Below, piece after piece: positions 10,191-64,000 of a stretch of 64,000 nt of DNA. Below the pieces are notes generated by a model. That model ran no database searches, was not told the DNA's origin, and was given only the letters and a program-made list of their open reading frames with translations. Positions within the stretch are counted from its first letter, which is position 1, and every line of letters starts with the position of its first letter. Origin of the DNA: Candidatus Falkowbacteria bacterium (GTDB taxonomy: Bacteria; Patescibacteriota; Patescibacteriia; XYB2-FULL-38-15); NCBI GenBank assembly GCA_016214745.1, contig JACRNW010000012.1, positions 4,368 through 68,367 of the forward strand, written 5' to 3'. The position numbers were made by a program, and so were the translations under genes.

Positions 10191-10254
10191 AATCCTCTGG
10201 TTTATATGCGAAAGTAAAGAGTTATTTAGTTTTGTTTTATTATATCACATCTTA

Positions 10255-10382
10255 CCCCGTTAGAAGTCCTCCGCGTAAAAATTTAATAAATTTTTACGCC
10301 CAAAAGTCATCGTCGTTTTTAAAAAAAATATTCCAACTCCGGCTGTCGTTTAAAGATAAATTAAACGGACTTCTAACGAGGC
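10255..10382 (+). promoter_or_regulatory. Copy 1 of a structured leader-element family (CCCCGTTAGAAGTCC ... GGACTTCTAACGAGG), oriented toward rpsF.
   Basis: Terminal inverted repeats enclose an AT-rich hairpin (gcgtaaaaattt-aataa-atttttacgc). Homologous copies are at 17418..17545 and 49405..49545. Confidence 0.6.
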
Positions 10383-10513
10383 TTGCACAATTTTTAGGGT
10401 TATGCTAAACTTTTAGAAACTTTATTATCAAGCGAGCGAGAGAAATGAAATTTATTTCATTTCCGAGCGAGCGCAGATAACAGGGATTTAATGCCCTTTA
10501 TTTAAATAGTTTT

Positions 10514-23327: not shown

Positions 23328-24629
23328 TCATTTATTAAATAATTTTTTACGGCGGAGGAGCTTGTGATAGCCAATGGCAAAACGGTGGGCTTCATCGCGA
23401 ACTCGGAGCAAAATATCTTTGTGCAATTCAGCGACGCGGACGAGTTCAGGATTATTTTGATCGGCAATCAGCCGGTCTTGTTTGCGGTCAAAACCTTTGG
23501 CAACACCCAGCACCGGAATTTTTATTTTTTTCTCGGAGAGAATCTCGCGAACAGCGTTGATTTGCCCCCAGCCGCCGTCAACCAAAATTATATTTGGTAA
23601 TGGCCAATCAGAAAGATGCTTTAATCGTCGCGTCATTACTTCTTTCATCATCCCGACATCGTTTGGTGTGGTTAAAGTTTTAATTTTAAATTTTCGGTAT
23701 TCATTTTTATTTGGTTTACCATCTTCAAAAACAACCATGCTGCCGGTCGCCGAAGTGCCGCTGATGTTTGAAATGTCATAACCCTCAATTCGACCAAAAA
23801 TGTCAATTGTTCCGCTGGATACGAATAGCGAATCTTTTGCGAATTTGCGAATTCGTAAATTCGAAGTTAATTCGTTATTCGTATCCTTTGTCAAAATAGC
23901 CACATCCTGGATATGCTCCAGAGAAAAAATTTGATTGCGAAGTCGCGCTGCTTTTTCAAAATTTTCTTCGCGGCTCGCAATAGCCATTTCCTTTTTTAAA
24001 TTTTTAATGATTTTTTCTTTTTTTCCTTCAAAAAATAAAATTAAATGGTGGATGAGGCGGCGGTAATCTTTTATTGAAACAAATCCGGCGCAAGGTGCAG
24101 GGCATTGTTTTAAATGATAATGAAGGCACGGTTTTTTAGCCATAACCACGCAATCGCGGAAAGGAAAAATTTTCCGGCGCAGAATATCAAGCGCGGCGCG
24201 AAGCGAGGAGGCACTCGTGTACGGACCGAAAAGTTTGGCGATTTGTTTTTTCTCGCCGGATGTCATCCGAGCCAATTCTAATCCACGCAGTAAAAAAATC
24301 CGAGGAAATTTTTCTTTGCTGATCGCCACGTACAAAAACGATCTATCATCTTTTTCTTTAACATTATATTTTGGTAAATATTTTTTTATCAAATTGGCTT
24401 CCAAAATTAAAGCTTCAATCACGGTAGGAGTTTTTTGGTAATCAATATCTGCAATTTTTGAAACTAATTTTTCAATTCTAATATCGTGCGGTCGGTCAAA
24501 ATAGCTTTTTACCCGATCGCGGAGCGAAGTGGCTTTTCCGACATAAATAATTTTACCCACGGCATTTTTCATTAAATACATGCCCGGGGTTTTAGGAAAT
24601 TTTTTTATTTTATTTTTTAATTCCGGCAT
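23328..24629 (-). CDS. uvrC: Excinuclease ABC subunit C, short form. The start is reassigned to the internal Met.
   Basis: A GIY-YIG motif (GMYLMKNAVGKIIYVGKATSLRDRVKSYF), a UvrBC-interaction region, and a C-terminal RNase H-like endonuclease region are present. The longer ORF start at 24779 would read through the high-GC insert. Confidence 0.85.
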   Translation of the reverse strand: MPELKNKIKKFPKTPGMYLMKNAVGKIIYVGKATSLRDRVKSYFDRPHDIRIEKLVSKIADIDYQKTPTVIEALILEANLIKKYLPKYNVKEKDDRSFLYVAISKEKFPRIFLLRGLELARMTSGEKKQIAKLFGPYTSASSLRAALDILRRKIFPFRDCVVMAKKPCLHYHLKQCPAPCAGFVSIKDYRRLIHHLILFFEGKKEKIIKNLKKEMAIASREENFEKAARLRNQIFSLEHIQDVAILTKDTNNELTSNLRIRKFAKDSLFVSSGTIDIFGRIEGYDISNISGTSATGSMVVFEDGKPNKNEYRKFKIKTLTTPNDVGMMKEVMTRRLKHLSDWPLPNIILVDGGWGQINAVREILSEKKIKIPVLGVAKGFDRKQDRLIADQNNPELVRVAELHKDILLRVRDEAHRFAIGYHKLLRRKKLFNK

Positions 24630-36076: not shown

Positions 36077-36151
36077 TGGGGTGGCTACTGGGAGTTGAAC
36101 CCAGGCCAGTGGGACCACAACCCACTGTTCTACCGTTAAACTATAGCCACC
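36077..36151 (-). tRNA. tRNA-His (anticodon GTG).
   Basis: It has a G-1 extra nucleotide, acceptor GGTGGCTA/TAGCCACC, anticodon loop TTGTGGT, T-loop GGTTCAACTCC, and an encoded CCA. Confidence 0.75.
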
Positions 36152-36152
36152 A

Positions 36153-36228
36153 TGGTGACCCCGCTAGGAATCGAACCTAGATATCCAGCTTAGAAGGCTG
36201 GTGTTCTATCCATTGAACTACGGGGCCG
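36153..36228 (-). tRNA. tRNA-Arg (anticodon TCT).
   Basis: Cloverleaf: GGCCCCG-TA-GTTCAATGGATAGAAC-A-CCAGCCTTCTAAGCTGG-ATAT-CTAGGTTCGATTCCTAG-CGGGGTC-A-CCA. Confidence 0.75.
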
Positions 36229-36322
36229 TAATAAGTTAAAAGTTTAAAGTGAAAAGTTAAAAGTTTTTGAGTAAATTATTTTTTAATATAACAAACAATT
36301 TTCAGATTGTCAATCGTGAATT

Positions 36323-36499
36323 TCTCCCCTTAAGATAAGGGGAGATTAAGAGGGGTTATGAGCGGTGGATTTTAGTGGCCGGTTCATAACGCCCCCGCCC
36401 GCCACGCAAGCCAGCCCCGCCTGCAACGCTATGCTTGCATTAGCGGGCAGGTTGCTGGCGTTGCGGGCAGGCCCAGCCCCTCTTACCTTAAGAGGGGAG
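36323..36499. repeat. Structured GC-rich direct repeat, copy 1, flanking the xer gene (related to the R-a/R-b core).
   Basis: It is nearly identical to 37648..37827. The end hairpins are tctcccctta-ag-taaggggaga and cccctctta-cc-ttaagagggg. The core is gctggcgttgcgggcagg. Confidence 0.8.
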
Positions 36500-37610: not shown

Positions 37611-37647
37611 CAACAAGTTCACAGTTTTCTTTTGGCGGCGCTCTGGT

Positions 37648-37827
37648 TTCTCCCCTTAAGGTAAGGGGAGATTAAGAGGGGTTATGAAAGGTGGATTTTT
37701 AAAATCACAATTCATAACGCCCCCGCCCGCCACGCAAGCCAGCCCCGCCTGCAACGCTATGCTTGCATTAGCGGGCAGGTTGCTGGCGTTGCGGGCAGGC
37801 CCAGCCCCTCTTATCTTAAGAGGGGAG
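37648..37827. repeat. Structured GC-rich direct repeat, copy 2 (partner of 36323..36499).
   Basis: About 97% identical over about 175 bp. Confidence 0.8.
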
Positions 37828-39234: not shown

Positions 39235-40362
39235 ATGGGAATCTCGGTAAAATTCCGTTGGGGGGGGGGATTTAAAGGGCGGATCGTTCCGAAAATTCAA
39301 TTGGCTCATAAATTTGAAGATATTATTTCTTTAGAAAATTTATTTTTGGCCTGGCAGGAATTTTTAGTTGGCAAAAAGGGTAAGCGCGACGTCCAGATTT
39401 TTGCTCGCGACTTGGCTGATAATATTTTAGCGCTCCACGAAGATTTAGCAAATAAAACTTATCGCCACGGCGGATATGAAAGTTTTTACGTCAACGATCC
39501 GAAACGCCGACATATTCATAAAGCGGCGGCGCGCGACCGTTTACTCCATCACGCCGTTTACAGAATTCTTTATCAGTTTTTTGAAAAAACATTTATTGCC
39601 GACTCCTTTTCCTGTCGCTTAGGGAAAGGAACACACAAGGCCATTAATCGTTTCCGGGCCATGGCTTTTCGGGTAAGCCAAAATCACACGCGGACGGTTT
39701 GGGTTTTGAAATGCGACATTAAAAAGTTTTTCGCGAGCATTGACCACGAGGTTTTACTTAAAATTTTGAAAGAATATATTCCGGATGAAAATATTTTGTG
39801 GCTGCTGAAAAATGTGATAGAAAGTTTTGCCACTCTCCCCCTCACCCCTGCCCGCAACGCCAGCGCTAGCGTGGCAGGCGGGCCAACCCTCTCCCCGAAG
39901 GGGCGAGGGGACGAAAACGGTGTTGGTCTGCCGCTTGGCAATTTGACCTCGCAACTTTTCGCCAATGTTTATATGAATGTTTTTGATCAGTGGGTTAAAC
40001 ATAAACTGAAAGCCAAAAATTATTTACGCTATGCCGACGACTTTGTTTTTCTTTCCGAAAATCGTGAGTGGCTTTTGAATATCGTGCCGCAGATTAAAAA
40101 GTTTTTGGCGGAAGAATTAAAACTGACGCTTCATCCAAAGAAAATTATTTTGAAAACCGTCGTTTCGGGCGTTGATTTTTTGGGTTGGGTGTGCTTCTCG
40201 GACCATCGCGTCCTGCGGCAGACGGCGCGGCGGCGGATGTTAGCGCGTATTTTGGAAAATCCCACACAAGAAACTCTGCAATCATATTTAGGTCTTCTGA
40301 AACACGGCAATACTCTTGGAGTACGGTGGCAGACTCTTATAAATTATTGGTTGTGGGGGTGA
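39235..40362 (+). CDS. DGR reverse transcriptase.
   Basis: Motifs present: ENLFLAWQEFLVGKKGKR; GLPLGNLTSQLFANVYMN (DGR-type motif 4); LRYADDFVFL (YADD). There is no maturase/X domain and no intron structure. A G10 tract sits at 39260..39269 near the N-terminus. An in-frame GC-hairpin repeat insert lies at 39826..39912. Confidence 0.85.
   Translation: MGISVKFRWGGGFKGRIVPKIQLAHKFEDIISLENLFLAWQEFLVGKKGKRDVQIFARDLADNILALHEDLANKTYRHGGYESFYVNDPKRRHIHKAAARDRLLHHAVYRILYQFFEKTFIADSFSCRLGKGTHKAINRFRAMAFRVSQNHTRTVWVLKCDIKKFFASIDHEVLLKILKEYIPDENILWLLKNVIESFATLPLTPARNASASVAGGPTLSPKGRGDENGVGLPLGNLTSQLFANVYMNVFDQWVKHKLKAKNYLRYADDFVFLSENREWLLNIVPQIKKFLAEELKLTLHPKKIILKTVVSGVDFLGWVCFSDHRVLRQTARRRMLARILENPTQETLQSYLGLLKHGNTLGVRWQTLINYWLWG
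39826..39912. repeat. GC-rich hairpin repeat, copy R-b, inserted in-frame within the RT gene.
   Basis: It is the reverse complement of 4249..4330. It translates as ATLPLTPARNASASVAGGPTLSPKGRGDENG without stops. Confidence 0.8.
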
Positions 40363-54096: not shown

Positions 54097-56097
54097 TTAA
54101 AAAGTCAGAGGGTTTAACGCCGGATCGGGGATTCCTGACGGTGAGGTTGGTACAGTCGCCGGCGGTTCTGTTGGCGGCGGGGTCGGTTCTTTTCCGACCA
54201 AACAAACCGCGCTCCATGGAACATAATGGCTTGTCCAAGTTTCAGTTTTTATTTCACCGTCCTTAGAAGCAATAGTTCTCTCAAACGCAGCGTCCGCGCC
54301 GGTATGCGCGCGCTCAGTACATTTTTTTTCGCCGGGCGCCAAGTCCGTGGTTTCAACAATTTTAGTCGGGCCGGGGCTCACAAAATTAAAAACTCTTGGC
54401 GTTGTTATTTCTACCTTACGTCCGTCGGGCGTACCCCAGAGTTCAAAAATTAATTCATTGCCGTCAATTTTCGTTTGGAGCAAAAGATAAGCCGGCGTAT
54501 CATTGATAAACTTAAGATCAGGACTTGGACTGTAAATTGTCGCGTCCATGCCGGCTGGTTCATAATAAACTACGCGGTAAGAATGAGGCCGGCGTTCGGT
54601 AATGGGCAGGCCGGCGTTTAAAGCCACGCGGAACATTGTCGTGCCGATTTGGCAGAGGCCGCCGCCGTATTCGGGAATTGTTTTATCGCCCTTGATAACC
54701 AGCTCCTGCAGATAGCCGGTACGTCCGCTTATTTCTCCGAGAGTTTTGTCGGTGGAAAATTCTTCGCCAGGAGCAATTAAGACGCCATTAAGTTTTGCCG
54801 CTCCGACCGCGATGTTGTGGCGGCGATTTACCGGGCTTCCGGAAAAATCTGAAATACCTTCGCCGACCAATTCCTGAATTCCTAAATTATTAAGACTGCC
54901 GATTGGAATTTGCGGAGCGGTAATTTTTACAATTAATTGGATAATGTCAGAATTGTCTAGTTTATAATTTGACGGACAACTGGCGGGAATTTTTGTTTCG
55001 TCAAAATTTATCAAGTAATCATTTATGATATTGTAGCTTGCCTCAACATTTAATTCTTTTCCGCCCTGATGGAGCTGAAATTCTTTGACAACGCCGTTTT
55101 CAATCGTGAACTTGGCGTTTTGCGGGGCGACGTCAATCGTCTTTGCCAAAGTTTTTAAATATTCTTCAGTTTTTTCTTTATTTAGTCCGGCTATTACGCT
55201 GTTCGGCGTTAATTGAAACTCCATCCATAATCTGATTTGATCTTGAGTTATATTCCAGATTTTTTTATTTTCTTTGACAGAGATAAGGCAAAGTCCAGCC
55301 AGTTTTTTTGCTCGATCCGCGGCCAAGGTCGCTTCGGCTTTTTTTATTTTTGCTTTTCCGGCCACAAAATCAATCGGCGTCGGGGTTGTATCAAGGACGG
55401 AAACTTTGGCAAAAGCTTCATCAATTGCTGATGAATAATCAAAGACTTGGCCGTCTTCTTCGTCGCTCACTTTGGTGGAAACAGTTCGTCCGTTTGTAAT
55501 TATTTCGAGTTGGGCATCTTTAATCGGTTTTTCAAGATAACCAAAATTTTCTTTTAAGACTGCCAGAATTTCTTCTTCATTTAGTTGATATTTAAGTTTA
55601 AGCTTTTGTCCGAAGAGTAAAAGATAAAAATGCTGCTTCAAATCATTCCAAAAATTTCCTGACCGTCCCAAGGCCATGGCTTCTTCAATTGTTCCTTTAT
55701 TATCCAAAGTAAAGACGGAGCGGGAGAGGTCGGGGTCAGTTGGGGCAGTAACAAGCGGAACGACTGATGCTTTTTTATTTTGGTAAATAAAAGTAACCCC
55801 TTCCTCGTTGTAGGTTCTGGTTGTCTCATTGAGCAGGTTGAAGGCATGATCGTTTGTTTTTCCGCCGATATTTAAATCCCCGATTTTTACGCCGGGAAAA
55901 ATTTTATCGGAGAAAACTTCTTCAAAGGCAAAAACCGTGGCGGTCGGCAAAACTATTAATAACAAAAAAATGGCAATAACAATTTTATGCCATTTTTTAA
56001 TGATGAATTTTCGCGGAGTTGCTTCAGCTATTTTCACCTCGGGATTTGCTAAATTTTTATTTTTTTCTTTACGCATCTTTTCTTGCCCGCTCACCAA
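54097..56097 (-). CDS. VanW-domain membrane-anchored protein with a Pro-rich C-terminus.
   Basis: An N-terminal TM segment is present. The VanW core reads YGGGLCQIGTTMFRVALNAGLPITERRPHSYRVVYYEPAGMDATIY. Confidence 0.7.
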   Translation of the reverse strand: MVSGQEKMRKEKNKNLANPEVKIAEATPRKFIIKKWHKIVIAIFLLLIVLPTATVFAFEEVFSDKIFPGVKIGDLNIGGKTNDHAFNLLNETTRTYNEEGVTFIYQNKKASVVPLVTAPTDPDLSRSVFTLDNKGTIEEAMALGRSGNFWNDLKQHFYLLLFGQKLKLKYQLNEEEILAVLKENFGYLEKPIKDAQLEIITNGRTVSTKVSDEEDGQVFDYSSAIDEAFAKVSVLDTTPTPIDFVAGKAKIKKAEATLAADRAKKLAGLCLISVKENKKIWNITQDQIRLWMEFQLTPNSVIAGLNKEKTEEYLKTLAKTIDVAPQNAKFTIENGVVKEFQLHQGGKELNVEASYNIINDYLINFDETKIPASCPSNYKLDNSDIIQLIVKITAPQIPIGSLNNLGIQELVGEGISDFSGSPVNRRHNIAVGAAKLNGVLIAPGEEFSTDKTLGEISGRTGYLQELVIKGDKTIPEYGGGLCQIGTTMFRVALNAGLPITERRPHSYRVVYYEPAGMDATIYSPSPDLKFINDTPAYLLLQTKIDGNELIFELWGTPDGRKVEITTPRVFNFVSPGPTKIVETTDLAPGEKKCTERAHTGADAAFERTIASKDGEIKTETWTSHYVPWSAVCLVGKEPTPPPTEPPATVPTSPSGIPDPALNPLTF

Positions 56098-56140
56098 TTC
56101 TAGAAAAATTTTTCCATTGCAAAAAATTATTTCACGGGAG

Positions 56141-56398
56141 TTAAGGTTTTTTATGATGATCTTTGTCGGAATTGGTGGGCGGGTGAACCTGTAATATTTC
56201 GTTCAGGAGAGTTTTGGCCAATTTAGCTCTTTCTTCTTCATCAGTTTGGCTTGTAGAAATACTAAGCCGGAGAGCTGAACCTTCTTTTGCGTCATCGGGG
56301 AGATCTTTTTTGGGCCAGATAATTTCTTGTCCGTCTTCGGTTTTTATAACAGCAGAATCGCCTTCAAATCGATCAACCGCCGCTTTTATAAATTTCAT
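56141..56398 (-). CDS. Small hypothetical protein (DUF3006-like).
   Basis: 85 aa. The sequence includes FEGDSAVIKTEDGQEIIWPKKDLP. Confidence 0.4.
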   Translation of the reverse strand: MKFIKAAVDRFEGDSAVIKTEDGQEIIWPKKDLPDDAKEGSALRLSISTSQTDEEERAKLAKTLLNEILQVHPPTNSDKDHHKKP

Positions 56399-56403
56399 AA
56401 AAT

Positions 56404-56841
56404 TTAAAACTCCTCCTTAACTTTAATTTGAGCGTCGGAAACAGCTTTGGGCAGAATAATTGTCAGAAGTCCGTTTTTTAGAATTGCTTTTATTTTATCC
56501 GCTTTGACATCTTGAGGCAGAACAATAGTTCTTGAAAAACCTCCCCAGTAGCATTCGCGGTAAAGATAATCGGAAGGGTTAATATTGGCCTCGGCTTCGC
56601 GTTTTCCACGGATAGTCAGAAGATCATTATTTACGAGAATATTTAAATCTTCCGGTTTTACGCCAGCCACGGTTGACCGAACAACAATTTCTTTATCATT
56701 ATGATAAACATCAACAGAGAGCTGGCCTTCATATTCTTTGGCCAGCCAGGTATGGGGCTCTCCGTCGCCCTCTTTTTGCACCGGGAAAAAATTCTCCTCT
56801 TCAGGTTTTTGATTTTTTAATGGGAAGAGGTTTTTGAGCAT
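56404..56841 (-). CDS. Hsp20/alpha-crystallin family small heat-shock protein.
   Basis: The alpha-crystallin domain reads VDVYHNDKEIVVRSTVAGVKPEDLNILVNNDLLTIRGKRE ... KNGLLTIILPKA. Confidence 0.85.
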   Translation of the reverse strand: MLKNLFPLKNQKPEEENFFPVQKEGDGEPHTWLAKEYEGQLSVDVYHNDKEIVVRSTVAGVKPEDLNILVNNDLLTIRGKREAEANINPSDYLYRECYWGGFSRTIVLPQDVKADKIKAILKNGLLTIILPKAVSDAQIKVKEEF

Positions 56842-56925
56842 AGGCTTTAAATAAGTTATATTATTGTAGTAGATTTTTAAATAGTTGTCAAAATTTTTAA
56901 CTTCTGATATTATATTAAATAACTT

Positions 56926-57003
56926 GGCCCTATCGTCTAGTCTGGTCTAGGACACCACGCTTTCAATGTGGTAACCCGGGTTCGAATCCCGGTGGGGCTA
57001 CCA
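56926..57003 (+). tRNA. tRNA-Glu (anticodon TTC).
   Basis: Cloverleaf: GGCCCTA-TC-GTCTAGTCTGGTCTAGGAC-A-CCACGCTTTCAATGTGG-TAAC-CCGGGTTCGAATCCCGG-TGGGGCT-A-CCA. The 3' end is overlapped by IR1-L and by the recombinase ORF tail. Confidence 0.75.
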
Positions 57004-58525
57004 GAAAAAAACTTTTCGGATTTTCGGTAAAAATTTGGTTGACGGCGCACAGCGCCGCCCACGGGTTTTTCGGCGAATTGTCGCCGTTTTTTATTTCCCC
57101 CCACACCACTTGTCCGCCCGTAAGGCGGAGGTTCGAGCCAAATATTTTTTTGGCCATAACCTTTTTGTCTAAAAGGTTATGCTCCCGCGCGATTTTAGGC
57201 AGATTCTCTGCCTCTTTTATCCATTCCTTCATCGGTTCGATCCAGCCAGTCCGCTTTTGTTTCAGGTGGACAATTTTTTCTTCCAGCGACTTTTTCTCAC
57301 TTATAAATTTAGCCTTCTTTTCTAAGTATACCTCTCGCTCAATATCCTGCTCCAAGTAACTATCTAAAAGTCGCTGTAGCTTCATTTTTAGGGACTCTAT
57401 GGTATTTTTGATCTCTTGAACAAAAGCGGCCGAGGATTGGGCATCTTGGTTTTTGTCTTTTTCGAGCAAGGCGGTTAATTGCGTTGCCCAATCCTCGCTC
57501 AAAGAAAATTTTTCAAGCAAAAGGGATGTCTGCTCATCTAAACACTCCTGGCGAATACAGGGCTCGTCACATTTTATTGCCTTGTTCTTTTTGGTGCAGT
57601 GATAATAAATATAATCATGAGTATTACCATTCTTTTGTTTTTTCACCCTGTATTCGCCAGTTATGCCCATACCACAAGTGCCACATCTTAACATGCCGCA
57701 AAATGCTTGCGGTTCATTTTTTGTTTTGTGGTGCGGTCTGCTTTTTTGCTTCAAAATATTCTGTACTTGGTCAAAAATTTTCTTTGAGATGACTGGCTGA
57801 TGTTTGCCCTCATAAAGTTCTTTACCGTACCTAAAAAATCCAACATAAAACGGATTGGAAAGGATAAAAGAAACTCTGTCTCGTTTCCAGTGTTTACCAT
57901 TACGCGATGTTATTCCTTGTTGCGCCAAAAAGTTAGAGATATCCTCTAGTCGTGAATTGCCTTGCGCGTATAGTTCAAAAGTTTTTCGCAAGATTTCCGC
58001 TTGCTTTTTATCCACAGCCACATTTTTAGTGCGGGGGTCGTTGAAATACCAAAACGGCGCAAGGCCGGGATACTCTCCGCGCCTAACTTTTTGGCGCATA
58101 CCTCGCTTTACATTTTCGGATAATGAATCAACATAATATTTGCTTTGCCCAAAAGCAATATTTAGCATAAATTTCCCTTGTGGCGTGCTTTCAAACCAAA
58201 ACTGCGGAAATTTTAAGGCCGTAATATGCCCGCAATCTAAAAGATAAATTATCTTTCCACCATCCACAGAATTGCGCGCTAATCGGTCGGGATGCCACGA
58301 AATTATGCCATTTGCTTCCCCGCGCTCTATTCTTTCTAACATGGTATTAAAAACCGGTCTGCCTGGAATTTTAGCCGATTGTTTTTCTATTAACTCCTCA
58401 ACAATAATCAGACCTTCATTTCTGGCAAAGGCGCGCAATTCTGTGGTCTGGGCTTCAATACTCAAAACTTGCTTATCTTCCACATCCGTGGATTTGCGGG
58501 CATACAAAAAGAATTTTTGTTCCAT
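56963..58525 (-). CDS. Large serine recombinase (resolvase/invertase N-domain + recombinase domain + zinc ribbon). Its C-terminal roughly 45 aa are encoded by IR1-L.
   Basis: Catalytic N-terminus LYARKSTDVEDKQVLSIEAQ ... GIISWHPDRLARN. Zinc ribbon CGMLRCGTCGMGITGEY..YYHCTKK. A C-terminal coiled coil is present. The start is reassigned to MEQKFFLYARKST. Confidence 0.85.
   Translation of the reverse strand: MEQKFFLYARKSTDVEDKQVLSIEAQTTELRAFARNEGLIIVEELIEKQSAKIPGRPVFNTMLERIERGEANGIISWHPDRLARNSVDGGKIIYLLDCGHITALKFPQFWFESTPQGKFMLNIAFGQSKYYVDSLSENVKRGMRQKVRRGEYPGLAPFWYFNDPRTKNVAVDKKQAEILRKTFELYAQGNSRLEDISNFLAQQGITSRNGKHWKRDRVSFILSNPFYVGFFRYGKELYEGKHQPVISKKIFDQVQNILKQKSRPHHKTKNEPQAFCGMLRCGTCGMGITGEYRVKKQKNGNTHDYIYYHCTKKNKAIKCDEPCIRQECLDEQTSLLLEKFSLSEDWATQLTALLEKDKNQDAQSSAAFVQEIKNTIESLKMKLQRLLDSYLEQDIEREVYLEKKAKFISEKKSLEEKIVHLKQKRTGWIEPMKEWIKEAENLPKIAREHNLLDKKVMAKKIFGSNLRLTGGQVVWGEIKNGDNSPKNPWAALCAVNQIFTENPKSFFLVAPPGFEPGLPH
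56999..57135. repeat. Inverted repeat IR1-L (137 bp), a perfect inverted copy of 58737..58873. It starts in the tRNA-Glu 3' end.
   Basis: The reverse complement of 58737..58873 matches base-for-base as read. It contains the hairpin ccgcc-cgtaa-ggcgg. Confidence 0.85.
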
Positions 58526-58736
58526 ATATTTTTTATTAAAATTTAAATAGCCGCCCTGGTGCAGCCAACCCAAGAGAAAGTCTCAAGGATTGATTCCAAG
58601 ACGGCTATTAAAAAAGACTTTCTTGATTTGGTTGGCTGCGTATTAAGTATACCACAAATATAAAAAACAACAAAACAAAAATTCTTTTTGTCGGGCAAAG
58701 CAAATAACGAGACAGAATTTCAAATCGCGCGGGTGG

Positions 58737-58873
58737 CGAACCTCCGCCTTACGGGCGGACAAGTGGTGTGGGGGGAAATAAAAAACGGCGACAATTCGCC
58801 GAAAAACCCGTGGGCGGCGCTGTGCGCCGTCAACCAAATTTTTACCGAAAATCCGAAAAGTTTTTTTCTGGTA
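58737..58873. repeat. Inverted repeat IR1-R.
   Basis: Partner of 56999..57135. It generates the spurious ORF 58688..58918. Confidence 0.85.
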
Positions 58874-58887
58874 TCACTTTACAACGA

Positions 58888-59009
58888 AATACGAACCTTT
58901 TTTGAACAAAATTATTAGGGGTTTATGGTGTAGGGGCTGGCCGCCCCTACAACCCCGCAAATTCGTGCGGGCAAAAAGGAAGGGGTTTTAGGGGAGGGAA
59001 TTTTTGCCC
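58888..59009. repeat. Inverted repeat IR2-L (122 bp), a perfect inverted copy of 63129..63251, composed of three hairpins.
   Basis: gaaatacgaaccttttttgaacaaaattattaggggtttatggtgtaggggctggccgcccctacaaccccgcaaattcgtgcgggcaaaaaggaaggggttttaggggagggaatttttgccc equals the reverse complement of 63129..63251. Confidence 0.85.
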
Positions 59010-62000
59010 AGTTGGTACGCCGCGATACTCAAATCGAACGAAGTAAAAGTCCTCGCCACCCAAGTATTTATCCATTTTTTCATTGTGTGTCAAGAAAAAT
59101 CCTCGGCTTTCAAACCACTGTCGCACTCGTTCGTTCATTATCATTGCATATGATGTGCTTGCTCGCGCTTCCGCTTCAATCGGTACTTTGTATGCTGTCG
59201 CGATATCAAGGACGCGCTCCATCATTTTTCTTGCCAAACCTTTTCCTTGGTAGTTTGGCAAAATGGCCATATCATGCACATGAGCTGCGCGTTCGCTGGG
59301 ATTGACTTCCGATTCTTCAGGAAGAACAAGTAGGTAACCAGCGGCTTCTTTACCGGATCTGACGACAAAACTCGACGCGGCGCCGGGCACTTCCAATTCG
59401 CGCTGCTTGCGCAAAATATCAGCGATGTGCGCTTTCCCTTGAGTCATTCCTTGCGGATAAATTGCTTCTTCAAGTTTTGCAATGAGTTCCACATCTCTTT
59501 CAGTAAGATTGGCGTAAGTAATGGCTTCGTCTAAAGATTCAACGCCGCGAATTTTAGGCATATCATAAATTTGGTCGCCGCGCGCGTCGGAATATCCAAC
59601 ATGCGTTTTCGGCTCGTACACATTTTGTTCAAGCCTTCCACCAGGCGGAATCAAATCTGAATAACCAGTCCCAACTTTTACCGGACGACTCGTATATTCT
59701 GCCCAAAATGTTTGGTACACACGCGCTAAAAGCGGGGAAAGATTTTTGTAATTATTCGCCACCTCGATATTATCCAAGATCACCACATCTGAATTATCTC
59801 GACGATTCCGGCTGTCGACGATAACGGATTGCGCAACAATGCGTCCATTGTATTTGATAGTGAAGTATTGAGTGGAAGGATTAAACATGTAGTCAGTATT
59901 TTTGGAGTCGCCAAACGGCATGCAACAATCCGTATAGTTTCCACACACCCACCCTTCAGGGTCTGATTTTGCGTGAACTTGTGCTTCAACCAATGGACCA
60001 ACATCAACATTTTGTTCTTGAAGCAAGCGAATAACATCCTCCTCAATATCAACGGGTATATTTTGAAAAAGATCAGGTACTTCCATTTGTTTTTCGCCCA
60101 TTTTTCGGCCTTTGATTAGTTGCTTGAGTTGAAAGAATAACCCCTTAATGTCTTTAGCGGTGCCGCGGATTTTCATTTTTTGAGAACCTAATCCTTCTTT
60201 TAGGGCTTCAGTTAAGGCTCGGCCGGCAAAAATACGGCGGTGCGGTTCAAATGGTTGCTCGCTGTCCAATTTTCCCTCTGCGAGATCGTGAAAATCTGCT
60301 CTGCGTTTTAATTTTTCAAGCGCGCCAAGATTAAATCCTGGGGCGGCGGTAATTTCTAAAATTTCAGGAGGCAAACCGGAAAGATCAAGATTAGATTCAA
60401 CTGCAAACACTCGTTTTTTTAATTCACGCAAAGATGACACTGGACCATGATTTTGAAACGGATCGCGTTCTTTGTTATATCGTGGCAGGAAGTTAATAAA
60501 TTCTTGATTATCATCCATTGTCTGTATTCCATTCAAAATGCCTTTTGCTTCAGCTGGTTCAAGTCGTCGAATATTTGGCACCCAAAAAAGTACATCATGC
60601 CAATTTGCCAATCGTCCGTCGGTTCCTCGCGTTGCGTTAAACCGCAAAAGATAATTCTGCACCACCGTGCCGCCCGTATATTCTGCCGCTTCTTTATACC
60701 AACCTCTGATTTCTGGTGTTTGAGCCGCGAGACATAGTCTGAAATCAAGATCGTTTTTTGATTCAGGGGTTTCTGCAAAAATCTTTTGCCATTCGCGGCC
60801 TTCTGCGCTCGCGCGCCATTCGGCATAACGCACGAGGCCATTTGGGTCGCGCAAAACATAATCATTAGCGTACTCGTAATACATCTCAACTTCTGCCTGC
60901 GACACTGCGGTTTGTAATTCCGCTGGCCAATCAGCGACGGCAAAAGAAAGATCATCGCCTTCGTGTCCGTCAACAATACCTTTTAGATATCGCTGTTTAT
61001 CATGTGCTAAAGCAACGCCTCTCAAATCCTGTCCATGTTCCAATGCCTGAACGACAAGTCCAAGAGTTGCCTGTTTTCCTTGCTGTTCAGTTTGTTCTCT
61101 GCCATAACCACCGGCTTCCTGTTGTCCTAAAAGTGCAGCGATTAAATTACCATGTTGTTCAAGATATTTATTTAATTTATCTTGAGGCACGTCTGCAACG
61201 GATAAATCATAACGGCCCCAGTCAACCCACTGCTGATAAAATTTTGTTCCTTCAGCGCGATAGGGATTTTTCAAAAAAACTTGCAAGGCCAGCCAGTGCA
61301 TGCGCTTGCCTTCAAAAAATAAATCACGGCAAGCCCTTACGCCGATGACTTCTTCCCATGTTTTTCCTTCCGCTCGTTTTCCAAGCCGCTTTCGCGCCGC
61401 TTCAATTCTTGGCGCTTCGCGTTGCTGTAAATACTGCCAGACGCCTTTTTCAATGAGTTTGTGCGCTTCTGCTAACTGTTTTTTCAGTTTATCTGGTTCC
61501 ATTTTACTTACATCAAATCCGAGTTTTTCCAAAAGTTGCCAGCCGCTCATTTGACGGGAAACATCTCTATCATCAGCGGCGAGTATGCCTTTGGCGCGTT
61601 CCGGTCCTACGGCCTTCAAAAAATCATAAACCACCGCGTCGGAATAGTTATACGGCGACTGTTCTCCTCTGCGACAACGAAATTGCTCAATAAGTTCTGC
61701 GGTTTCCGGGTCTGCTTTTGCCGCGCGCAAACCTAAGGTCTCACGAACGCCAGTTTTTACTTGGGCAACCGCATTTTCTCTATCAATTTTTCCAAAAATA
61801 ACAGGCTTGTCATAAAATTTAGAAAGCACAAAATCAATTGTCGCTCCTTGCCGCTCGCTCTCGTTTGGTTCGGCGAAAAGTCGTTCCAGTCGTCTTGAAG
61901 TTCGCTCAAAATTTTGATAATCACGCAAAGCGTCACCAGACAGCAAGCCATATTTTTTTGCTATGGCCTCATACTTAAAATGTAATTGGCGCATGACCCT

Positions 62001-62933
62001 GCCGGAAGAAACGCCAGTCAATAATAGCTCGCGGTCGCGTATATTTTGACCAAGTTCTGCCGCCATTCTTTCTCGCGCCGCATGAATGACTGGGGCTCGA
62101 GCTTGACTTTCAATCTGGCCTCTTTCTTCCCAAGCTAAGTATTCGCCTGTTGGTAATTGTCCGTGTTCATTTACACCGCGTGCTTCAAAAGCAGTGCGCA
62201 CCGCTTCAGTCATGGATAAATTTGCTTGCTCAGAAAATTTGTCATTGTAATATATTGATAAATTTTCAGAAATTCTTGCGAGCTGATGTTTCATCGTGCG
62301 CACAAGCGGAGCAATGTTGCGCACATCCGGCTCAAACATTGTATTCGTTTGTTCATCCCAAGCACGCATGCCAAAATCGTTTACGCCAAGGTAGCGATTT
62401 TGTGAGCGAAGAAAATAGCGATGTGGCATAGCTACATCCGCCCCTTGCACATCTCGTCGAGTATCAATCCTGACATTCTCTTTCGCCCACGCCAACGCTA
62501 AAAGATCTGCGGTTGTAATTTCCGAGGCAGGAGAACCGTCGGGATTGTATTCGTCAGTTTTATAAATGGTTTTCTTTCCATTCTCTTCGCGAATAAAATA
62601 CTGCCCACCCAGCATGGCGATTTCTTCGTTGGTTAATCGCAGACGACGAATAACTGCGTCTTGATCTACTTCTTGGCCTTCCGCAAGCAAAAGCGGCAAC
62701 AATTCCTTAAAATGTTTTTCGGTAAAAGAAGACGCTTCGGTTTCAATATCTTTTCTTGTTAAGGGTTTTTCAGCTGCCTCAACTTCAAACTGTTCATCCA
62801 ATTCGGGATGATGACCGCCTTCTTTGCTTTTTGGAGTTTGCCGCCATTCCTCCAAACCCTCATCGATTTCTTTTGCCGCCTGACGTTTTGAATATCGTTC
62901 AGGCATTGAAAAACGTTCTGACATAAATTTCAA
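58947..62933 (-). CDS. Large (1328 aa) cytoplasmic hypothetical protein with a C-terminal GNAT N-acetyltransferase domain.
   Basis: The GNAT motif is HVHDMAILPNYQGKGLARKMMERVLDIATAYKVPIEAEA. No signal peptide. About 47% GC. Its 3' end lies within IR2-L. Confidence 0.6.
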   Translation of the reverse strand: MKFMSERFSMPERYSKRQAAKEIDEGLEEWRQTPKSKEGGHHPELDEQFEVEAAEKPLTRKDIETEASSFTEKHFKELLPLLLAEGQEVDQDAVIRRLRLTNEEIAMLGGQYFIREENGKKTIYKTDEYNPDGSPASEITTADLLALAWAKENVRIDTRRDVQGADVAMPHRYFLRSQNRYLGVNDFGMRAWDEQTNTMFEPDVRNIAPLVRTMKHQLARISENLSIYYNDKFSEQANLSMTEAVRTAFEARGVNEHGQLPTGEYLAWEERGQIESQARAPVIHAARERMAAELGQNIRDRELLLTGVSSGRVMRQLHFKYEAIAKKYGLLSGDALRDYQNFERTSRRLERLFAEPNESERQGATIDFVLSKFYDKPVIFGKIDRENAVAQVKTGVRETLGLRAAKADPETAELIEQFRCRRGEQSPYNYSDAVVYDFLKAVGPERAKGILAADDRDVSRQMSGWQLLEKLGFDVSKMEPDKLKKQLAEAHKLIEKGVWQYLQQREAPRIEAARKRLGKRAEGKTWEEVIGVRACRDLFFEGKRMHWLALQVFLKNPYRAEGTKFYQQWVDWGRYDLSVADVPQDKLNKYLEQHGNLIAALLGQQEAGGYGREQTEQQGKQATLGLVVQALEHGQDLRGVALAHDKQRYLKGIVDGHEGDDLSFAVADWPAELQTAVSQAEVEMYYEYANDYVLRDPNGLVRYAEWRASAEGREWQKIFAETPESKNDLDFRLCLAAQTPEIRGWYKEAAEYTGGTVVQNYLLRFNATRGTDGRLANWHDVLFWVPNIRRLEPAEAKGILNGIQTMDDNQEFINFLPRYNKERDPFQNHGPVSSLRELKKRVFAVESNLDLSGLPPEILEITAAPGFNLGALEKLKRRADFHDLAEGKLDSEQPFEPHRRIFAGRALTEALKEGLGSQKMKIRGTAKDIKGLFFQLKQLIKGRKMGEKQMEVPDLFQNIPVDIEEDVIRLLQEQNVDVGPLVEAQVHAKSDPEGWVCGNYTDCCMPFGDSKNTDYMFNPSTQYFTIKYNGRIVAQSVIVDSRNRRDNSDVVILDNIEVANNYKNLSPLLARVYQTFWAEYTSRPVKVGTGYSDLIPPGGRLEQNVYEPKTHVGYSDARGDQIYDMPKIRGVESLDEAITYANLTERDVELIAKLEEAIYPQGMTQGKAHIADILRKQRELEVPGAASSFVVRSGKEAAGYLLVLPEESEVNPSERAAHVHDMAILPNYQGKGLARKMMERVLDIATAYKVPIEAEARASTSYAMIMNERVRQWFESRGFFLTHNEKMDKYLGGEDFYFVRFEYRGVPTGQKFPPLKPLPFCPHEFAGL

Positions 62934-63128
62934 AAATATTAAAATATTAAAATGATGCTAAATCACTACTCATAATTTATCATAAATCGAGTTCTAAAGC
63001 AATGAGGAGCAATACTTGCGCGCGCACGGGCGGGTGGGGCAAGCGCAAATAGTTTCGGCGGCGCATTCGCGTAAGCGAATACGAAAACTCGCGCCGTCGG
63101 CGAAAAAGCGGCGGGCGAAAATAAGGGC

Positions 63129-63251
63129 GGGCAAAAATTCCCTCCCCTAAAACCCCTTCCTTTTTGCCCGCACGAATTTGCGGGGTTGTAGGGGCGGCCA
63201 GCCCCTACACCATAAACCCCTAATAATTTTGTTCAAAAAAGGTTCGTATTT
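63129..63251. repeat. Inverted repeat IR2-R.
   Basis: Partner of 58888..59009. Confidence 0.85.
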
Positions 63252-63261
63252 TATGCAGAAC

Positions 63262-63292
63262 CCGTTTTGACGGGTTTATTTTTTAGAGTAAA
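63262..63292 (+). terminator. Intrinsic terminator-like hairpin.
   Basis: The hairpin aacccgttttgacgggtt is followed by tatttttt. Confidence 0.55.
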
Positions 63293-63302
63293 ATACCAAT
63301 AT

Positions 63303-63920
63303 ATGAAGTCTAAAAGTATTTACATAATAACTATCGTCCTCGCGATAATCTTGGCAGGATTTTTATATTTTATAATTAAAAGTAATAATAAAGAAATTGA
63401 ACTGCCCAAAATAAACTTTGATGCAGAAGCTCAACTGCCGAATGCCAATATTAATTTCAAATATCCGAAGGAGGGATTTTACAAACTAGGGATCAATCTG
63501 ACTGATTTGGCAACCAGTGAAACTTTAATATCCGGAATACATATTGAACCCACCGCAGAATTTGATAGGAACGCCCAAAGTGCTTACGTAGTGGAGGAGA
63601 TTAAATTGTTGAAGAATGAAAAAAATTTTAAAAACATGGAAGAGCTTGAGTCATTTTATAAAACAGATTTTAGTCTTTCGGAGTTTGAAAGAGAGTATGC
63701 TAAAGAAAATGGACATATTTTAGATATCAATGATAACAAATATTTTATATATAAAGTGACAGAAGACGCGACTGTGTGGCATGCATTAACTATCGCAGAA
63801 GAAGGTGTTATTGAAGTTAGTTTAGCTTACACCAATGGTTTTACCCCTTATTCAGAAAATATATACAAAAATAATGACGGACTCTTTTTGGAAATATTAG
63901 AAAATATTAATCCCAGATAA
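63303..63920 (+). CDS. Hypothetical membrane-anchored protein.
   Basis: The N-terminal TM segment reads IYIITIVLAIILAGFLYFII. No motif was recognised. Confidence 0.4.
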   Translation: MKSKSIYIITIVLAIILAGFLYFIIKSNNKEIELPKINFDAEAQLPNANINFKYPKEGFYKLGINLTDLATSETLISGIHIEPTAEFDRNAQSAYVVEEIKLLKNEKNFKNMEELESFYKTDFSLSEFEREYAKENGHILDINDNKYFIYKVTEDATVWHALTIAEEGVIEVSLAYTNGFTPYSENIYKNNDGLFLEILENINPR

Positions 63921-64000
63921 TAATCCGAACGCCTGACAAAAATTATAAATGAAAACAACGGCTTTTCCGGCCACTGTTTTTATTTTTACTCAGCCACGAC

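Follow-up and report, generated by a model that had tools for sequence, protein, structure and literature searches.

The 4.1-kb segment bracketed by the perfect inverted repeats IR2 probably represents the cargo module of a site-specific island of ~6.25 kb inserted at a tRNA-Glu(ttc) gene, and belongs to a family of islands with a fixed layout; we put the probability of this reading at roughly 70%. The island spans positions ~57004-63253 of the window, the stretch of 64,000 nucleotides analyzed here, which stems from a Candidatus Falkowbacteria (Patescibacteria/CPR) genome (Table 1). It follows the order that recurs in the family: tRNA 3' end, arm A, large serine recombinase (LSR), arm A', arm B', cargo, arm B and native DNA, where IR1 forms the A/A' pair, IR2 the B'/B pair, and the LSR is convergent with the tRNA. 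The preliminary description had tied a mobilisable cargo module to the adjacent serine recombinase, and this is borne out by the recurrence of the two-module layout at many tRNA genes with ~50 cargos. The enclosed gene had also been seen as the raison d'être of IR2, a view that had to be abandoned, as IR2 is an arm found family-wide.

Table 1. Features of the tRNA-Glu island and its surroundings (positions in the window).
Feature	Position	Strand	Basis
tRNA-Glu(ttc), integration target	56926..57003	+	ARAGORN; Rfam tRNA, 58.9 bits
LSR gene, 520 aa from ATG 58525	56963..58525	-	Pfam
IR1-L, arm A, tRNA-proximal	56999..57135	+	Homologous arms in L021/LCOG, L014, L093, L131 and others
Putative recombinase upstream region, promoter-like TTGTTT..TGGTATACT and hairpin-forming leader	58526..58736	-	Inference from sequence
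IR1-R, arm A', perfect inverted copy of arm A	58737..58873	-	
13-nt "spacer" ATCACTTTACAAC	58874..58886	+	Alignments, junction analysis
IR2-L, arm B', LSR-proximal arm of the cargo module	58887..59009	+	Repeat search, alignments
Core hairpin in IR2-L, GGGCAAAAA / GGAAGGGGTTTTAGGGGAGGGAA / TTTTTGCCC	58969..59009	+	
Cargo gene, C-terminal GNAT, 1328 aa from TTG	58947..62933	-	
Cargo promoter-like motif TTGCTT-N17-TGATAAATT	62974..63002	-	Read from sequences
GC-rich, hairpin-rich stretch, inner part of ancestral longer B arm	63003..63128	-	
IR2-R, arm B, distal arm	63129..63251	-	Repeat search, comparison with native flank of L139/L140
Core hairpin in IR2-R	63129-63169	-	
Native DNA downstream of the tRNA-Glu site, ..TATGCAGAACCCGTTTTGACGGGTTTATTTTTTAGAG	63252..63290	+	L139/L140 comparison

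The island begins immediately after the 3' end of the tRNA-Glu (...GGGGCTACCA). Its recombinase was correctly recognized at the outset as a serine recombinase, and carries the Pfam domains Resolvase, Recombinase and Zn_ribbon_recom. The NCBIfam models it resembles are CcrB/XisF-like and all fall below cut-off; since the best one, CcrB, reaches 123.7 bits, far below its cut-off of 900 bits, the protein is not a Ccr. The LSR reading frame passes through arm A, whose minus strand encodes its last ~45 codons, and stops within the antisense strand of the tRNA, while the region upstream of the gene falls between the IR1 arms. Arm A itself begins within the final 5 nt of the tRNA-Glu and contains an inward-reading hairpin resembling an intrinsic terminator (CGGCGAATTGTCGCCG-T6); its counterpart in arm A' opposes transcripts arriving from the GNAT gene. 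At the other end, the native DNA resuming at 63252 marks the right border of the island, judging from the sequence ..ATTATGnAnAACCCGTTTTGACGGG.. common to the window, L139 and the relative L140, and in both L139 and L140 a terminator-like hairpin (63258-63277 in the window) is conserved upstream of the hyp217 gene. L140 displays the same synteny (VanW-DUF3006-HSP20-tRNA-Glu) and carries at that tRNA-Glu a different island of 4.25 kb, flanked by CTACCATGACAAC. The two junctions of the window island share only CAGAA, because its distal att-like end was deleted.

In the window, the arms of both pairs are 100% complementary, with 137 nt for IR1 and 123 nt for IR2, and the two pairs show no similarity to each other, as had been stated. 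The IR2 arms are separated by 4119 nt; the perfect pair initially delineated is real, but extends over 123 nt from 58887 rather than 122 nt from 58888, and it does adjoin IR1-R, at a distance of 13 rather than 14 nt. In the 64-kb window, a 25-nt stretch of the IR2 core is present in exactly two copies, against an expectation of 0 from 100 dinucleotide shuffles. Alignments show that the 13-nt spacer is the outermost part of arm B', a decayed mimic of a tRNA 3' end reading ...GTTGTAAAGTGATACCA on the opposite strand. The distal arm has no counterpart to it, since its end was deleted: IR2-R lacks the outer ~18 nt that held the mimic. The inner part of IR2-L is missing in turn. On the IR2-R side it persists as a structured stretch common to L001, L137, L014 and L087, with the same or with different cargo. 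The 195 nt of GC-rich structured sequence noted earlier between the TTG start and IR2-R are thus present, but represent inner arm deleted from the other side. A single deletion in arm B' both removed the inner arm and fused the GNAT reading frame to the arm, from which the final ~20 amino acids of the window protein are read; L001 and L137 retain the native stop (after ..GVPTQEE and ..GVPTPEE, respectively) plus ~85 further arm nucleotides. The window copy has probably been grounded by these two losses, that of the distal att-like end and that which fused the reading frame to the proximal arm.

The cargo gene, for which an ATG at 62924 (1325 aa) is a likelier start than the TTG, has its stop codon (58947-58949) inside IR2-L, as first described. 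High conservation marks the C-terminal part of its product, which terminates in a GNAT acetyltransferase domain; by inspection, the N-terminus is hydrophilic with no signal-like stretch, in agreement with the signal-less protein announced. The N-terminal ~700 aa are helical, and a structural search, addressing the remote homology that the preliminary description proposed to check, returned no known-fold match for them. With no PADLOC matches either, nothing supports a toxin- or effector-like acetyltransferase, and the supposedly elevated GC content (0.449 for the reading frame, 0.441 for the window) does not differ meaningfully. The promoter-like motif, situated ~50 nt ahead of the ATG and inside the IR2-bounded segment, is conserved between the window, L001 and L137, and was not detected by a strict consensus scan. 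L001 carries an orthologous gene (85% amino acid identity) adjoining a tRNA-Glu(ctc), without a recombinase, and L137 a third copy on a contig that ends within the arms. Flanking IR2-type arms were recovered for these two homologues, but not for those at 73% identity or below, which have neither arms nor core; the gene is therefore captured cargo. Homologues sit in unrelated genomic contexts, and the syntenic relative has a different island at its tRNA-Glu, so the gene is not the conserved syntenic core gene considered beforehand.

The arm core was found in at least 120 metagenome stretches and several CPR genomes, and wherever a locus holds two copies these are inverted (30/30, none direct). 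An LSR homologue lies beside the arms in 38 of 126 loci, and the layout is seen in L093, L131, L114, L031, L052 and L124 as well as in L014, where a tRNA-Arg is followed by a 93-nt inverted repeat enclosing the LSR and a 175-nt one enclosing Fic and DUF3800 genes. LCOG/L021 is collinear with the window over tRNA-Glu, LSR and arms (82.6%), its cargo being a 462-aa secreted protein. Across the family, the LSR lineage tracks the identity of the tRNA. The cargo, different in nearly every copy, comprises ~50 unrelated families of defence and nucleotide metabolism, for instance restriction-modification, Csx3, DndB with HEPN, Fic, radical SAM, GMP synthase, PurL/PurQ and PPDK-like proteins, and the same arms can also enclose operons of several genes that lie on both strands.

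At its outer end, each B arm repeats the final 3-6 nt of the target tRNA in decayed form (TACCA for Glu, CTCCA for Gly, CCGCCA for Ser, GCAC for Arg, CGC for Asp), with a T-loop-like GGTTCG motif 25-30 nt further inward, and distal B ends directly abut the next tRNA gene or native DNA and terminators. Whole islands are flanked by short direct repeats (TACCAGTACAAAAC in LCOG, 38 nt in L131). Each B arm contains a near-invariant core hairpin with an 11-12-bp stem and a 23-nt G-rich loop, the conservation of the loop being partly by construction, as it served as search pattern, with the flanking stem and the arms outside the pattern. As the hairpin sequences barely vary, they gain only negligible support from covariation, and Rfam gave no match. 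The loop is flipped relative to the arm between two core subtypes. Homology between islands with different cargo stops at the core or within a few tens of nucleotides, and in L093 and L124 the likeness of the arms is confined to the surroundings of the core. Our best guess is that the core hairpin is bound by the recombinase or by a host factor.

Sequence comparison further shows that recombinase, arms and cargo reassort between islands. Between the core and the start of the LSR (478 nt), L124 matches L026 at 99.6-100% identity, but within the coding sequence of the LSR at only 75%; the cargo of L094 recurs in L124 at 99.8%, and no alignment of ≥88% identity was obtained between the LSR regions of these two. 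The same restriction-modification cargo is oriented in L084 opposite to L075/L091, and the LSR module of L103 is inverted relative to L116, L093, L114 and L124, orientation calls across repeats of 120-220 nt being unreliable in short-read assemblies (L091, L094, L127 and L098 are palindromic contigs). In 12 of 12 loci with both tRNA and LSR visible the LSR orientation is identical, which argues against frequent flipping of its module, and three same-cargo pairs (window/L001, L035/L124, L037/L061) each keep one orientation.

The preliminary description named phase-variable expression as one possibility; here the LSR would flip the 4.1-kb IR2 segment and thereby switch the acetyltransferase on and off. 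Perfect repeats adjoining a serine recombinase would suit such a switch, as would the one cargo known in both orientations, albeit in different islands, and the one inverted LSR module. Yet we regard it as quite unlikely, since the cargo gene has its own promoter-like motif within the segment, where motif and entire reading frame would flip together; moreover, the arms of 120-220 nt far exceed known invertase sites, bracket operons with genes on both strands, are only 86-89% alike within L001 and LCOG, and enclose the three same-cargo pairs in a single orientation. A tentative alternative, unlikely in our view, is a platform for cassette exchange, with the B-arm hairpins as recombination sites of the LSR or a host enzyme, whose inversion permits orientation-free swapping or flipping and forbids loss. 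The invariably inverted cores, the end of different-cargo homology at or near them, the restricted arm likeness of L093 and L124 and the extreme cargo turnover and mosaicism are all consistent with it. So is the core itself (stem and loop, ~45-60 bp), with symmetric flanks around an asymmetric centre and a flipped loop that fits a site in duplex DNA; recombinase sites are of comparable size. However, cargo boundaries lie at varying distances, 20-45 nt, inside the core and hence give no sharp site-specific junction, and one and the same core accompanies recombinases with as little as 25-45% identity, although an att site usually changes along with the enzyme that acts on it. The mosaics are accounted for just as well by ordinary homologous recombination between arms, and no circular cassette was seen among the loci compared.

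The arms might also be regulatory or insulating palindromes only (terminators, promoters, sRNA), duplicated to either side of accessory genes, with no role in recombination. The terminator-like hairpins of the A arms point in this direction, together with the outward-reading T-runs that follow the core and next hairpin in subtype 2 and a weak inward TTGAAC-N17-TATGGT motif in subtype 1; this motif fails the consensus scan, though, and the strictly inverted pairing, the tight linkage to LSR and tRNA 3' ends, the arm tips mimicking tRNA ends, the invariant 23-nt loop unlike that of a terminator and the missing Rfam match make this reading very improbable. As for an assembly artefact, or a transposon in which the 1328-aa protein is its own transposase served by the terminal repeats, the perfect identity of the window arms and several homologue contigs of ~4 kb, the size of the gene alone, could be quoted in favour, but both are effectively refuted. 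Misassembly is ruled out by homologous imperfect arms in independent assemblies (86-100% identity in many; 223 nt at 86.5% around the orthologous gene of L001), and a transposon is contradicted by the ~50 other cargos between the same arms, the absence of target-site duplications, the armless GNAT homologues at 50-73% identity and a protein with no nuclease or transposase domain.

The site-specific tRNA islands recall several known systems. SCCmec and its relatives likewise rely on LSRs of the same broad type (Ccr), insert at the 3' end of one conserved gene, and have variable cargo, end repeats and recombinase-less derivatives; their target is rlmH and not a tRNA 3' end, and in contrast to them the islands are very small (3.6-8 kb) and possess a single recombinase, inverted arms of 80-280 nt around each module and a near-invariant hairpin. 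The tycheposons of Prochlorococcus are reportedly flanked by direct repeats of partial tRNA genes. They are likewise small cargo islands of streamlined genomes, integrated at tRNA genes with modular defence and metabolism cargo, and a figure labels partial tRNA genes; they carry mostly tyrosine integrases and many have replication genes, and their description includes neither mirrored arms around integrase and cargo nor a conserved hairpin (Hackl et al., bioRxiv 10.1101/2020.12.28.424599). The Hin/H and Gin/G invertible segments also place a serine recombinase gene within or next to a stretch delimited by inverted repeats, that of Hin lying inside like the LSR between the A arms, but work with ~190-aa invertases, 26-bp sites and an enhancer to flip a promoter or alternative gene ends, as opposed to a 520-aa integrase-type LSR and arms of 120-220 nt with no orientation-dependent expression logic. 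If the island circularises, it would resemble the yeast 2-micron plasmid (FLP/FRT) and plastid genomes in being a circle divided into two unique regions by a long inverted-repeat pair, with the recombinase gene within one region, and the concerted evolution of the arms is a further likeness; the 2-micron plasmid differs by its tyrosine recombinase, its host domain, its role in copy-number amplification and the lack of tRNA integration. Integrons share a recombinase-linked slot for highly variable, often defence-related cassettes with hairpin-forming boundaries, yet use a tyrosine integrase and one attC per cassette in direct arrays of mostly promoterless cassettes, unlike the single cargo module, inverted arms and cargo with own promoters of the islands.

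We propose that the recombinase would integrate a circular form, comprising recombinase and cargo, by crossover in the terminal tRNA nucleotides, a crossover point deduced from short identities only; no empty site or excised circle was seen. For LSRs, neither a need for long inverted arms nor a benefit from them is known. The mirrored arms, whose likeness gene conversion would maintain, would serve as common recombination handles, and cargo between identical inverted arms, such as a GNAT gene acquired from a rare family of chromosomal CPR genes, could be swapped or flipped either way without loss by deletion. Since the recombinase gene has its 3' end within its own arm, neither orientation would disrupt it, and terminator-like hairpins in some arms would insulate the modules. 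Such tRNA-end islands with conserved arms apparently constitute an undescribed and widespread family in the ultra-small CPR bacteria.

Comparison with related loci suggests that the inverted repeat IR2 and the GNAT gene within it form the cargo module of a serine-recombinase island inserted at a tRNA-Glu gene, a member of a large family in CPR genomes (Patescibacteria) with mirrored arms, and so a more general case than the preliminary description had envisaged. The window belongs to a Candidatus Falkowbacteria genome, with a 100% match to HZB93_03685. The order is tRNA 3' end, arm A, large serine recombinase (LSR), arm A', arm B', cargo, arm B and native DNA, IR1 being the A/A' pair and IR2 the B'/B pair. 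Both pairs exist as the preliminary description had claimed, each at 100% (table below), whereas the tRNA-Glu(ttc) gene is absent from that description. A 25-nt stretch of IR2 has exactly two copies in the window, versus none in 100 shuffles. The stop codon of the cargo gene lies in IR2-L. The 195 nt between its start and IR2-R, described as GC-rich sequence separating the two, do exist, and are better taken as the inner portion of the opposite B arm, matching the arm of L001 and L137, the two loci with the closest homologues of the cargo gene. The GC content of the gene itself, said to be slightly elevated, is not: it is 0.449 versus 0.441 for the window.

Coordinates of the features in the window and in related loci (L numbers, other genome or metagenome loci)
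Feature	Locus	Position	Orientation	Remark
tRNA-Glu(ttc)	window	56926-57003		IR1-L starts within last five tRNA bases
Island	window	about 57004-63253		extent from native flank comparison
IR1 arms (A/A')	window	56999-57135 / 58737-58873	inverted	137 nt, 100%
LSR ORF through A arm	window	56963-57135		arm part
LSR ORF through A arm	L093	5489-7174		
LSR ORF through A arm	L131	4821-6425		
LSR ORF through A arm	L031	2862-4526		
LSR ORF through A arm	L014	728-2488		
IR2 arms (B'/B)	window	58887-59009 / 63129-63251	inverted	123 nt, 100% complementary
Cargo ORF	window	58947..62933	minus	1328 aa, enclosed by IR2
Cargo N-terminal 700 aa	window	60825-62924		
Cargo promoter-like motif	window	62974-63002		within IR2 segment
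Reversed recombinase module	L103	1829-3629	reversed	breakpoints in 107-nt arms
Core-bounded module	L018	1-2962		
Second IR pair	L018	3189-3573 / 10035-10598	inverted	166 nt at 97%
Mobile-element region	L006	1-15655		621-kb CPR contig
Insert and island after tRNA-Glu	L140	4235-4503 and 8747-8759		insert ~185 nt, island 4.25 kb
tRNA-His/tRNA-Arg	window	36077-36227		
GC-rich repeats	window	36321-36499 / 37647-37827	direct	53 nt at 94% and 117 nt at 99%, ~1.3 kb apart
GC-rich pair	window	4251-4323 / 39838-39910	inverted	73 nt, 96%, 35 kb apart
Palindromic repeat	window	23802-23889 / 28936-29023	direct and inverted	88 nt, 86%, 5.1 kb apart

The most conserved stretch of the arm, including the loop of its near-invariant hairpin (the core), was used as a query against public collections. 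It matches six stretches of species-representative genomes (Magasanikiibacteriota, Parcubacteria GW2011_GWA2_47_26 and others) and at least 120 stretches of JGI metagenomes. Neither subtype of the core has a copy in the viral contig collection, which leaves a phage origin unsupported. Among the matches listed, the cores are inverted in all 30 two-copy loci, and an LSR homologue lies beside the arm in 38 of 126 loci; where tRNAs are visible, their 3' end abuts the 3' end of the recombinase gene. The layout with the LSR in one arm pair and the cargo in a second is also found in L093, L131, L114, L031, L052 and L124. L014 is an island at a tRNA-Arg gene with inverted repeats of 93 and 175 nt (both 100%), and LCOG (L021), the tRNA-Glu island of Parcubacteria GW2011_GWA2_47_26, is collinear with the window at 82.6% until the arm, beyond which it carries other cargo. 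Literature searches, including one on the core sequence, returned no description of the layout or the hairpin, and in Rfam (window 56000-64000, E up to 1) the tRNA was the sole match, with none for the arms or the core hairpin. In L018, the core-bounded module is followed by a 7.4-kb segment between another inverted repeat pair, so that mirrored arms may occur in chains or in further families of arms. The same core hairpin is accompanied in L051, L069, L090, L098, L107, L127 and L128 by another serine-recombinase lineage, only distantly related (25-28% identity to the window LSR); this lineage is seen in both orientations relative to the arm, and in L090 it adjoins a tRNA-Asn gene.

The window LSR has 520 aa and carries PF00239 (75.9 bits), PF07508 (68.8 bits) and PF13408 (30.9 bits), all over the Pfam cut-off, that is, the combination of resolvase, Recombinase and zinc-ribbon domains at about 450-600 aa expected of an integrase-type large serine recombinase. 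Its ORF overlaps the tRNA-Glu gene, a geometry found in 12 loci. The target tRNA varies with the identity of the LSR to the window enzyme: Glu at 87-100%, Gly or Asp at 63-70%, Ser at 46-49% and Arg at 39%. Such tracking of the tRNA by the recombinase lineage is the mark of site-specific integration, with a crossover that would lie in the terminal tRNA nucleotides.

The ends of the islands can be read in several loci. The tip of the B arm passes directly into native DNA, namely the following tRNA gene, entered at its 5' end, in L120, L126, L135 and L085 and a terminator in L075 and L084, and short direct repeats flank whole islands (TACCAGTACAAAAC in LCOG, CCGCCAA in L031 and 38 nt in L131). 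Distal ends are complete in L131, L031, LCOG and L093, all intact relatives, the last on a 167-kb Hainich contig. In the window, the far junction shares only CAGAA with the tRNA junction, since the distal arm tip has been deleted. This follows from comparison with L139 and L140, two relatives syntenic with the window at the tRNA-Glu site, which share with it the native ..ATTATGnAnAACCCGTTTTGACGGGTTTATTTTTTAGAG.. upstream of the next gene; it delimits the island and indicates the loss of about 18 nt of the distal arm tip, including TACCA, and of a few native bases, so that the window copy is probably no longer excisable. L001 and L137 retain the native stop of the cargo gene (..GVPTQEE* and ..GVPTPEE*) followed by about 85 further nt of arm; as another deletion, in the proximal arm of the window, took both the stop and these 85 nt, the window ORF has gained 20 codons from the arm. 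An excision would be expected to join ..GGTTCGTATTT to GAAAAAAACTTTTCGG.. in the circle, and ..GGGGCTACCA to TGACAAC/ATTATG..AACCCGTTTTGACGG in the restored site. Both relatives carry other inserts at this tRNA-Glu gene, and no empty site was found among those examined. L140 keeps the order VanW-DUF3006-HSP20-tRNA-Glu ... hyp205 and holds in the same place a different 4.25-kb island of three genes flanked by CTACCATGACAAC, which represents a different island family at the same tRNA hotspot. There, the tRNA gene and the three-ORF island are separated by a further insert, which has a direct copy of the 3' end of the tRNA (CCCGTTGGGGCTA) on either side; L139 ends likewise.

Other repeats of the window deserve mention. 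The direct repeats near 36.4 kb, GC-rich, hairpin-forming and located beside tRNA-His and tRNA-Arg, may mark the two ends of a further small tRNA-associated insert. They have CTGGCGTTGCGGGCAGG in common with the GC-rich 73-nt inverted pair (..GGCCCGCCTGCCACGCTAGCGCTGGCGTTGCGGGCAGGGG..), as if the genome had a second family of hairpin repeats, GC-rich and intergenic. One copy of the 73-nt pair lies directly upstream of a strong promoter-like TTGACA..TATTATAAAT. The 88-nt repeat is itself palindromic (ACGAATTTGCGAATTCGTAAATTCG..) and matches in both orientations.

The only recognizable domain of the cargo protein is at its C-terminus, a domain with the GNAT fold and acetyl-CoA-binding core that place it in the GNAT superfamily. 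We judge from the predicted secondary structure that a strand-rich, GNAT-like second region precedes it. The N-terminal 700 aa give a confident model (pLDDT 80.6, pTM 0.67), a largely helical body, for which Foldseek returned nothing from the PDB at E <= 0.001 (best E 0.44, TM about 0.1); this part may be a new fold joined to a tandem GNAT-like C-terminus. Searches of PADLOC, NCBIfam and PDB sequences gave nothing beyond GNAT, and no transposase or nuclease domain appeared in domain, defence and structure searches. Exact-protein look-ups returned no record for the window GNAT protein or the window HSP20. The family is rare, with 15 homologues, all from Patescibacteria metagenomes. Whether they possess IR2 had been proposed as a check, and only the closest relatives do: in L001 (85% amino acid identity), arms of 223 nt at 86.5% lie beside tRNA-Glu(ctc) without a recombinase, and L137 (82% nucleotide identity) is a 4.2-kb contig that ends within the arms, while homologues at 73% identity or less have neither arms nor core. 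The genomic contexts of the homologues are unrelated, at odds with a conserved syntenic gene. The protein is accessory cargo, neither a core gene nor a phase-variable toxin, a possibility raised in the preliminary description. The searches revealed no defence-system, transposase or toxin signature. A 57%-identical homologue without arms lies in L006 inside a mobile-element region that also holds two large serine recombinases and rolling-circle Rep, Zot, Fic, LexA and TrwB-like genes.

The range of cargo in the family is broad. Among the matches listed, 60 cargo ORFs of 31 two-core loci fall into 50 similarity clusters, of which 42 are singletons. By Pfam, defence or conflict cargo includes Fic with DUF3800, a DpnII-like restriction-modification system, an Eco57I/MmeI-like methylase fused to LexA, Csx3, DndB with HEPN, MORC-like ATPases and a radical SAM enzyme; metabolic cargo includes GMP synthase, PurL with PurQ, a PPDK/PEP-synthase-like enzyme, and a phosphoribosyltransferase with BtpA. 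Modules are found in new combinations from island to island. Over the 478 nt from the core to the LSR start, L124 and L026 have 99.6-100% identity, which extends to about 20 nt into the LSR gene and then drops abruptly to about 75%, a sharp mosaic breakpoint at the LSR start codon. L094 and L124 have cargo in common at 99.8%, and their recombinase regions are not alignable at >=88% identity; the window and LCOG share recombinase and arms and differ in cargo. In the Gly-type islands, the arm region of about 480 nt often varies less than the LSR coding sequence.

The B arm consists of three parts. Its outer tip is AT-rich, about 30 nt long, and finishes with 3-6 nt that repeat the 3'-terminal bases of the tRNA targeted by the island (Glu TACCA, Gly CTCCA, Ser CCGCCA, Arg GCAC, Asp CGC); with a T-loop-like GGTTCG at its start, the tip resembles a tRNA 3' fragment in decay. 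The middle is taken up by one or two GC-rich hairpins, which differ in sequence between loci. The core has a stem of 11-12 bp (GCGGGCAAAAA(A)), extendable to about 19 bp over a conserved GA/GA mismatch, and a purine-rich 23-nt loop, GGA(A)GGGGTTTTAGGGGAGG(G)AA. The constancy of the loop arises partly by construction, as it is in the search pattern; stem and extension lie outside the pattern and are nearly as constant. This hairpin of about 45-60 nt is almost invariant across recombinases only 25-45% identical. When 58 subtype-2 arms were folded jointly with RNAalifold, neither a meaningful consensus nor any compensatory pair emerged, and as these arms barely vary, covariation is usable neither for nor against the hairpins. 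The A arms start within the last tRNA bases and carry a GGGCGGC..GCCGCCC hairpin and a terminator-like hairpin. In every complete locus examined, the A arm is open in the LSR reading frame: the last ~45 LSR codons lie within the gene's own arm, and in five complete islands the ORF ends inside or beyond the tRNA antisense strand. As the 3' end of the gene belongs to the inverted repeat, it would survive a flip of its module intact. To our knowledge, mirrored arms around every module, an LSR 3' end within its own arm and a near-invariant hairpin lie outside the textbook picture of serine integrases.

Several explanations of the arms were weighed against this anatomy. The arm as promoter and 5' leader RNA of the cargo is contradicted by its TTGAAC-N17-TATGGT, which fails a consensus scan, by the promoter-like motif of the cargo downstream of the arm, and by the core loop, which is flipped relative to the arm in the major subtype; a 5'-3' panhandle of the mRNA falls on the same grounds. 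The two subtypes share the arm tip and have the core loop on opposite strands, a pattern that suits duplex DNA or a function independent of the strand better than one RNA. Serine recombinases cut both DNA strands, and a single-stranded folded att site in the style of CTX phage or attC would with such an enzyme yield a product that breaks the chromosome, and is rejected for this reason. Among loci that lack the recombinase, L001, L048 and L019 have a short perfect hairpin of the outer A-arm ends between tRNA and arm B', and L037 and L057 a palindrome of about 95 nt in this position. A less likely reading is that only the LSR module integrates, its target being a palindromic hairpin that follows the tRNA, and that these loci are empty sites, but the L001 hairpin consists of arm-A sequence beside a different tRNA-Glu gene, a better fit to secondary loss of the recombinase module, as which we would read these loci. 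Solo sites, in which a single core would have outer-arm motifs to its left and right, were absent from a regex screen, which was too crude to classify most loci.

Among known classes of element, an inverton of the Hin/Gin type, and with it the proposed phase variation, is disfavoured by the position of the complete ORF and its promoter-like motif, both within the segment. The motif is kept in L001 and L137, and a flip of the cargo would not be an on/off switch. A DNA transposon that encodes its transposase between terminal inverted repeats is contradicted by the roughly 50 other cargos found between such arms, the armless GNAT homologues at 50-73% identity, the lack of duplications at the junctions and the lack of a transposase or nuclease domain in the searches of the cargo protein. 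Unlike an integron, with IntI, attI and one attC per cassette in direct orientation, the island has a serine enzyme, inverted arms (30 of 30 pairs among the matches listed) and one module per island. It stands outside both invertase switches and integrons, and works like a site-specific integrative island, as SCC and tycheposon types do, without belonging to either. Inversion on an evolutionary time scale is likely. Judged against the side near the tRNA and the distal side, one and the same restriction-modification cargo (97.6% identity) points one way in L084 and the other way in L075 and L091, and the recombinase module of L103 is reversed versus its four closest relatives (L116, L093, L114, L124), L103 being a genuine inversion isomer or else the product of assembly mis-phasing; both the L084/L075 and L103/L116 hints come from different islands or assemblies and are open to mis-phasing. 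Against frequent flipping, LSR and tRNA converge in all 12 of the 12 loci showing both, and orientation is constant in three pairs with the same cargo. The whole contigs of L091, L094, L127 and L098 are perfect large palindromes (flank, arm, segment, arm, reversed flank), almost certainly assembler artefacts of the inverted arms, which calls for caution over orientation in these loci.

Candidate roles for arms and hairpin are orientation-free cassette exchange, protection from deletion, binding of recombinase or a host factor, and insulation. That they constitute a new recombination device, making the island a natural cassette-exchange system, is a speculative reading to which we would give roughly one chance in five. 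The LSR, or a host factor recruited by the hairpin, would then act on the inverted sites, and cargo and LSR gene would be swapped or flipped and never deleted.

The genomes of CPR bacteria are tiny, and gene gain and loss in them are poorly understood. The present family is abundant, compact and very regular, and brings restriction-modification, other defence and nucleotide-biosynthesis genes to tRNA ends. It also supplies many large serine recombinases, ready for use, whose target sites are defined by a tRNA and can be read from the sequence, and enzymes of this kind with defined targets are sought for genome engineering. If the arms were recombination sites, the islands would be a natural counterpart of recombinase-mediated cassette exchange, and if the device reading held, the tRNA ends of CPR genomes would be programmable slots for defence and metabolic genes.
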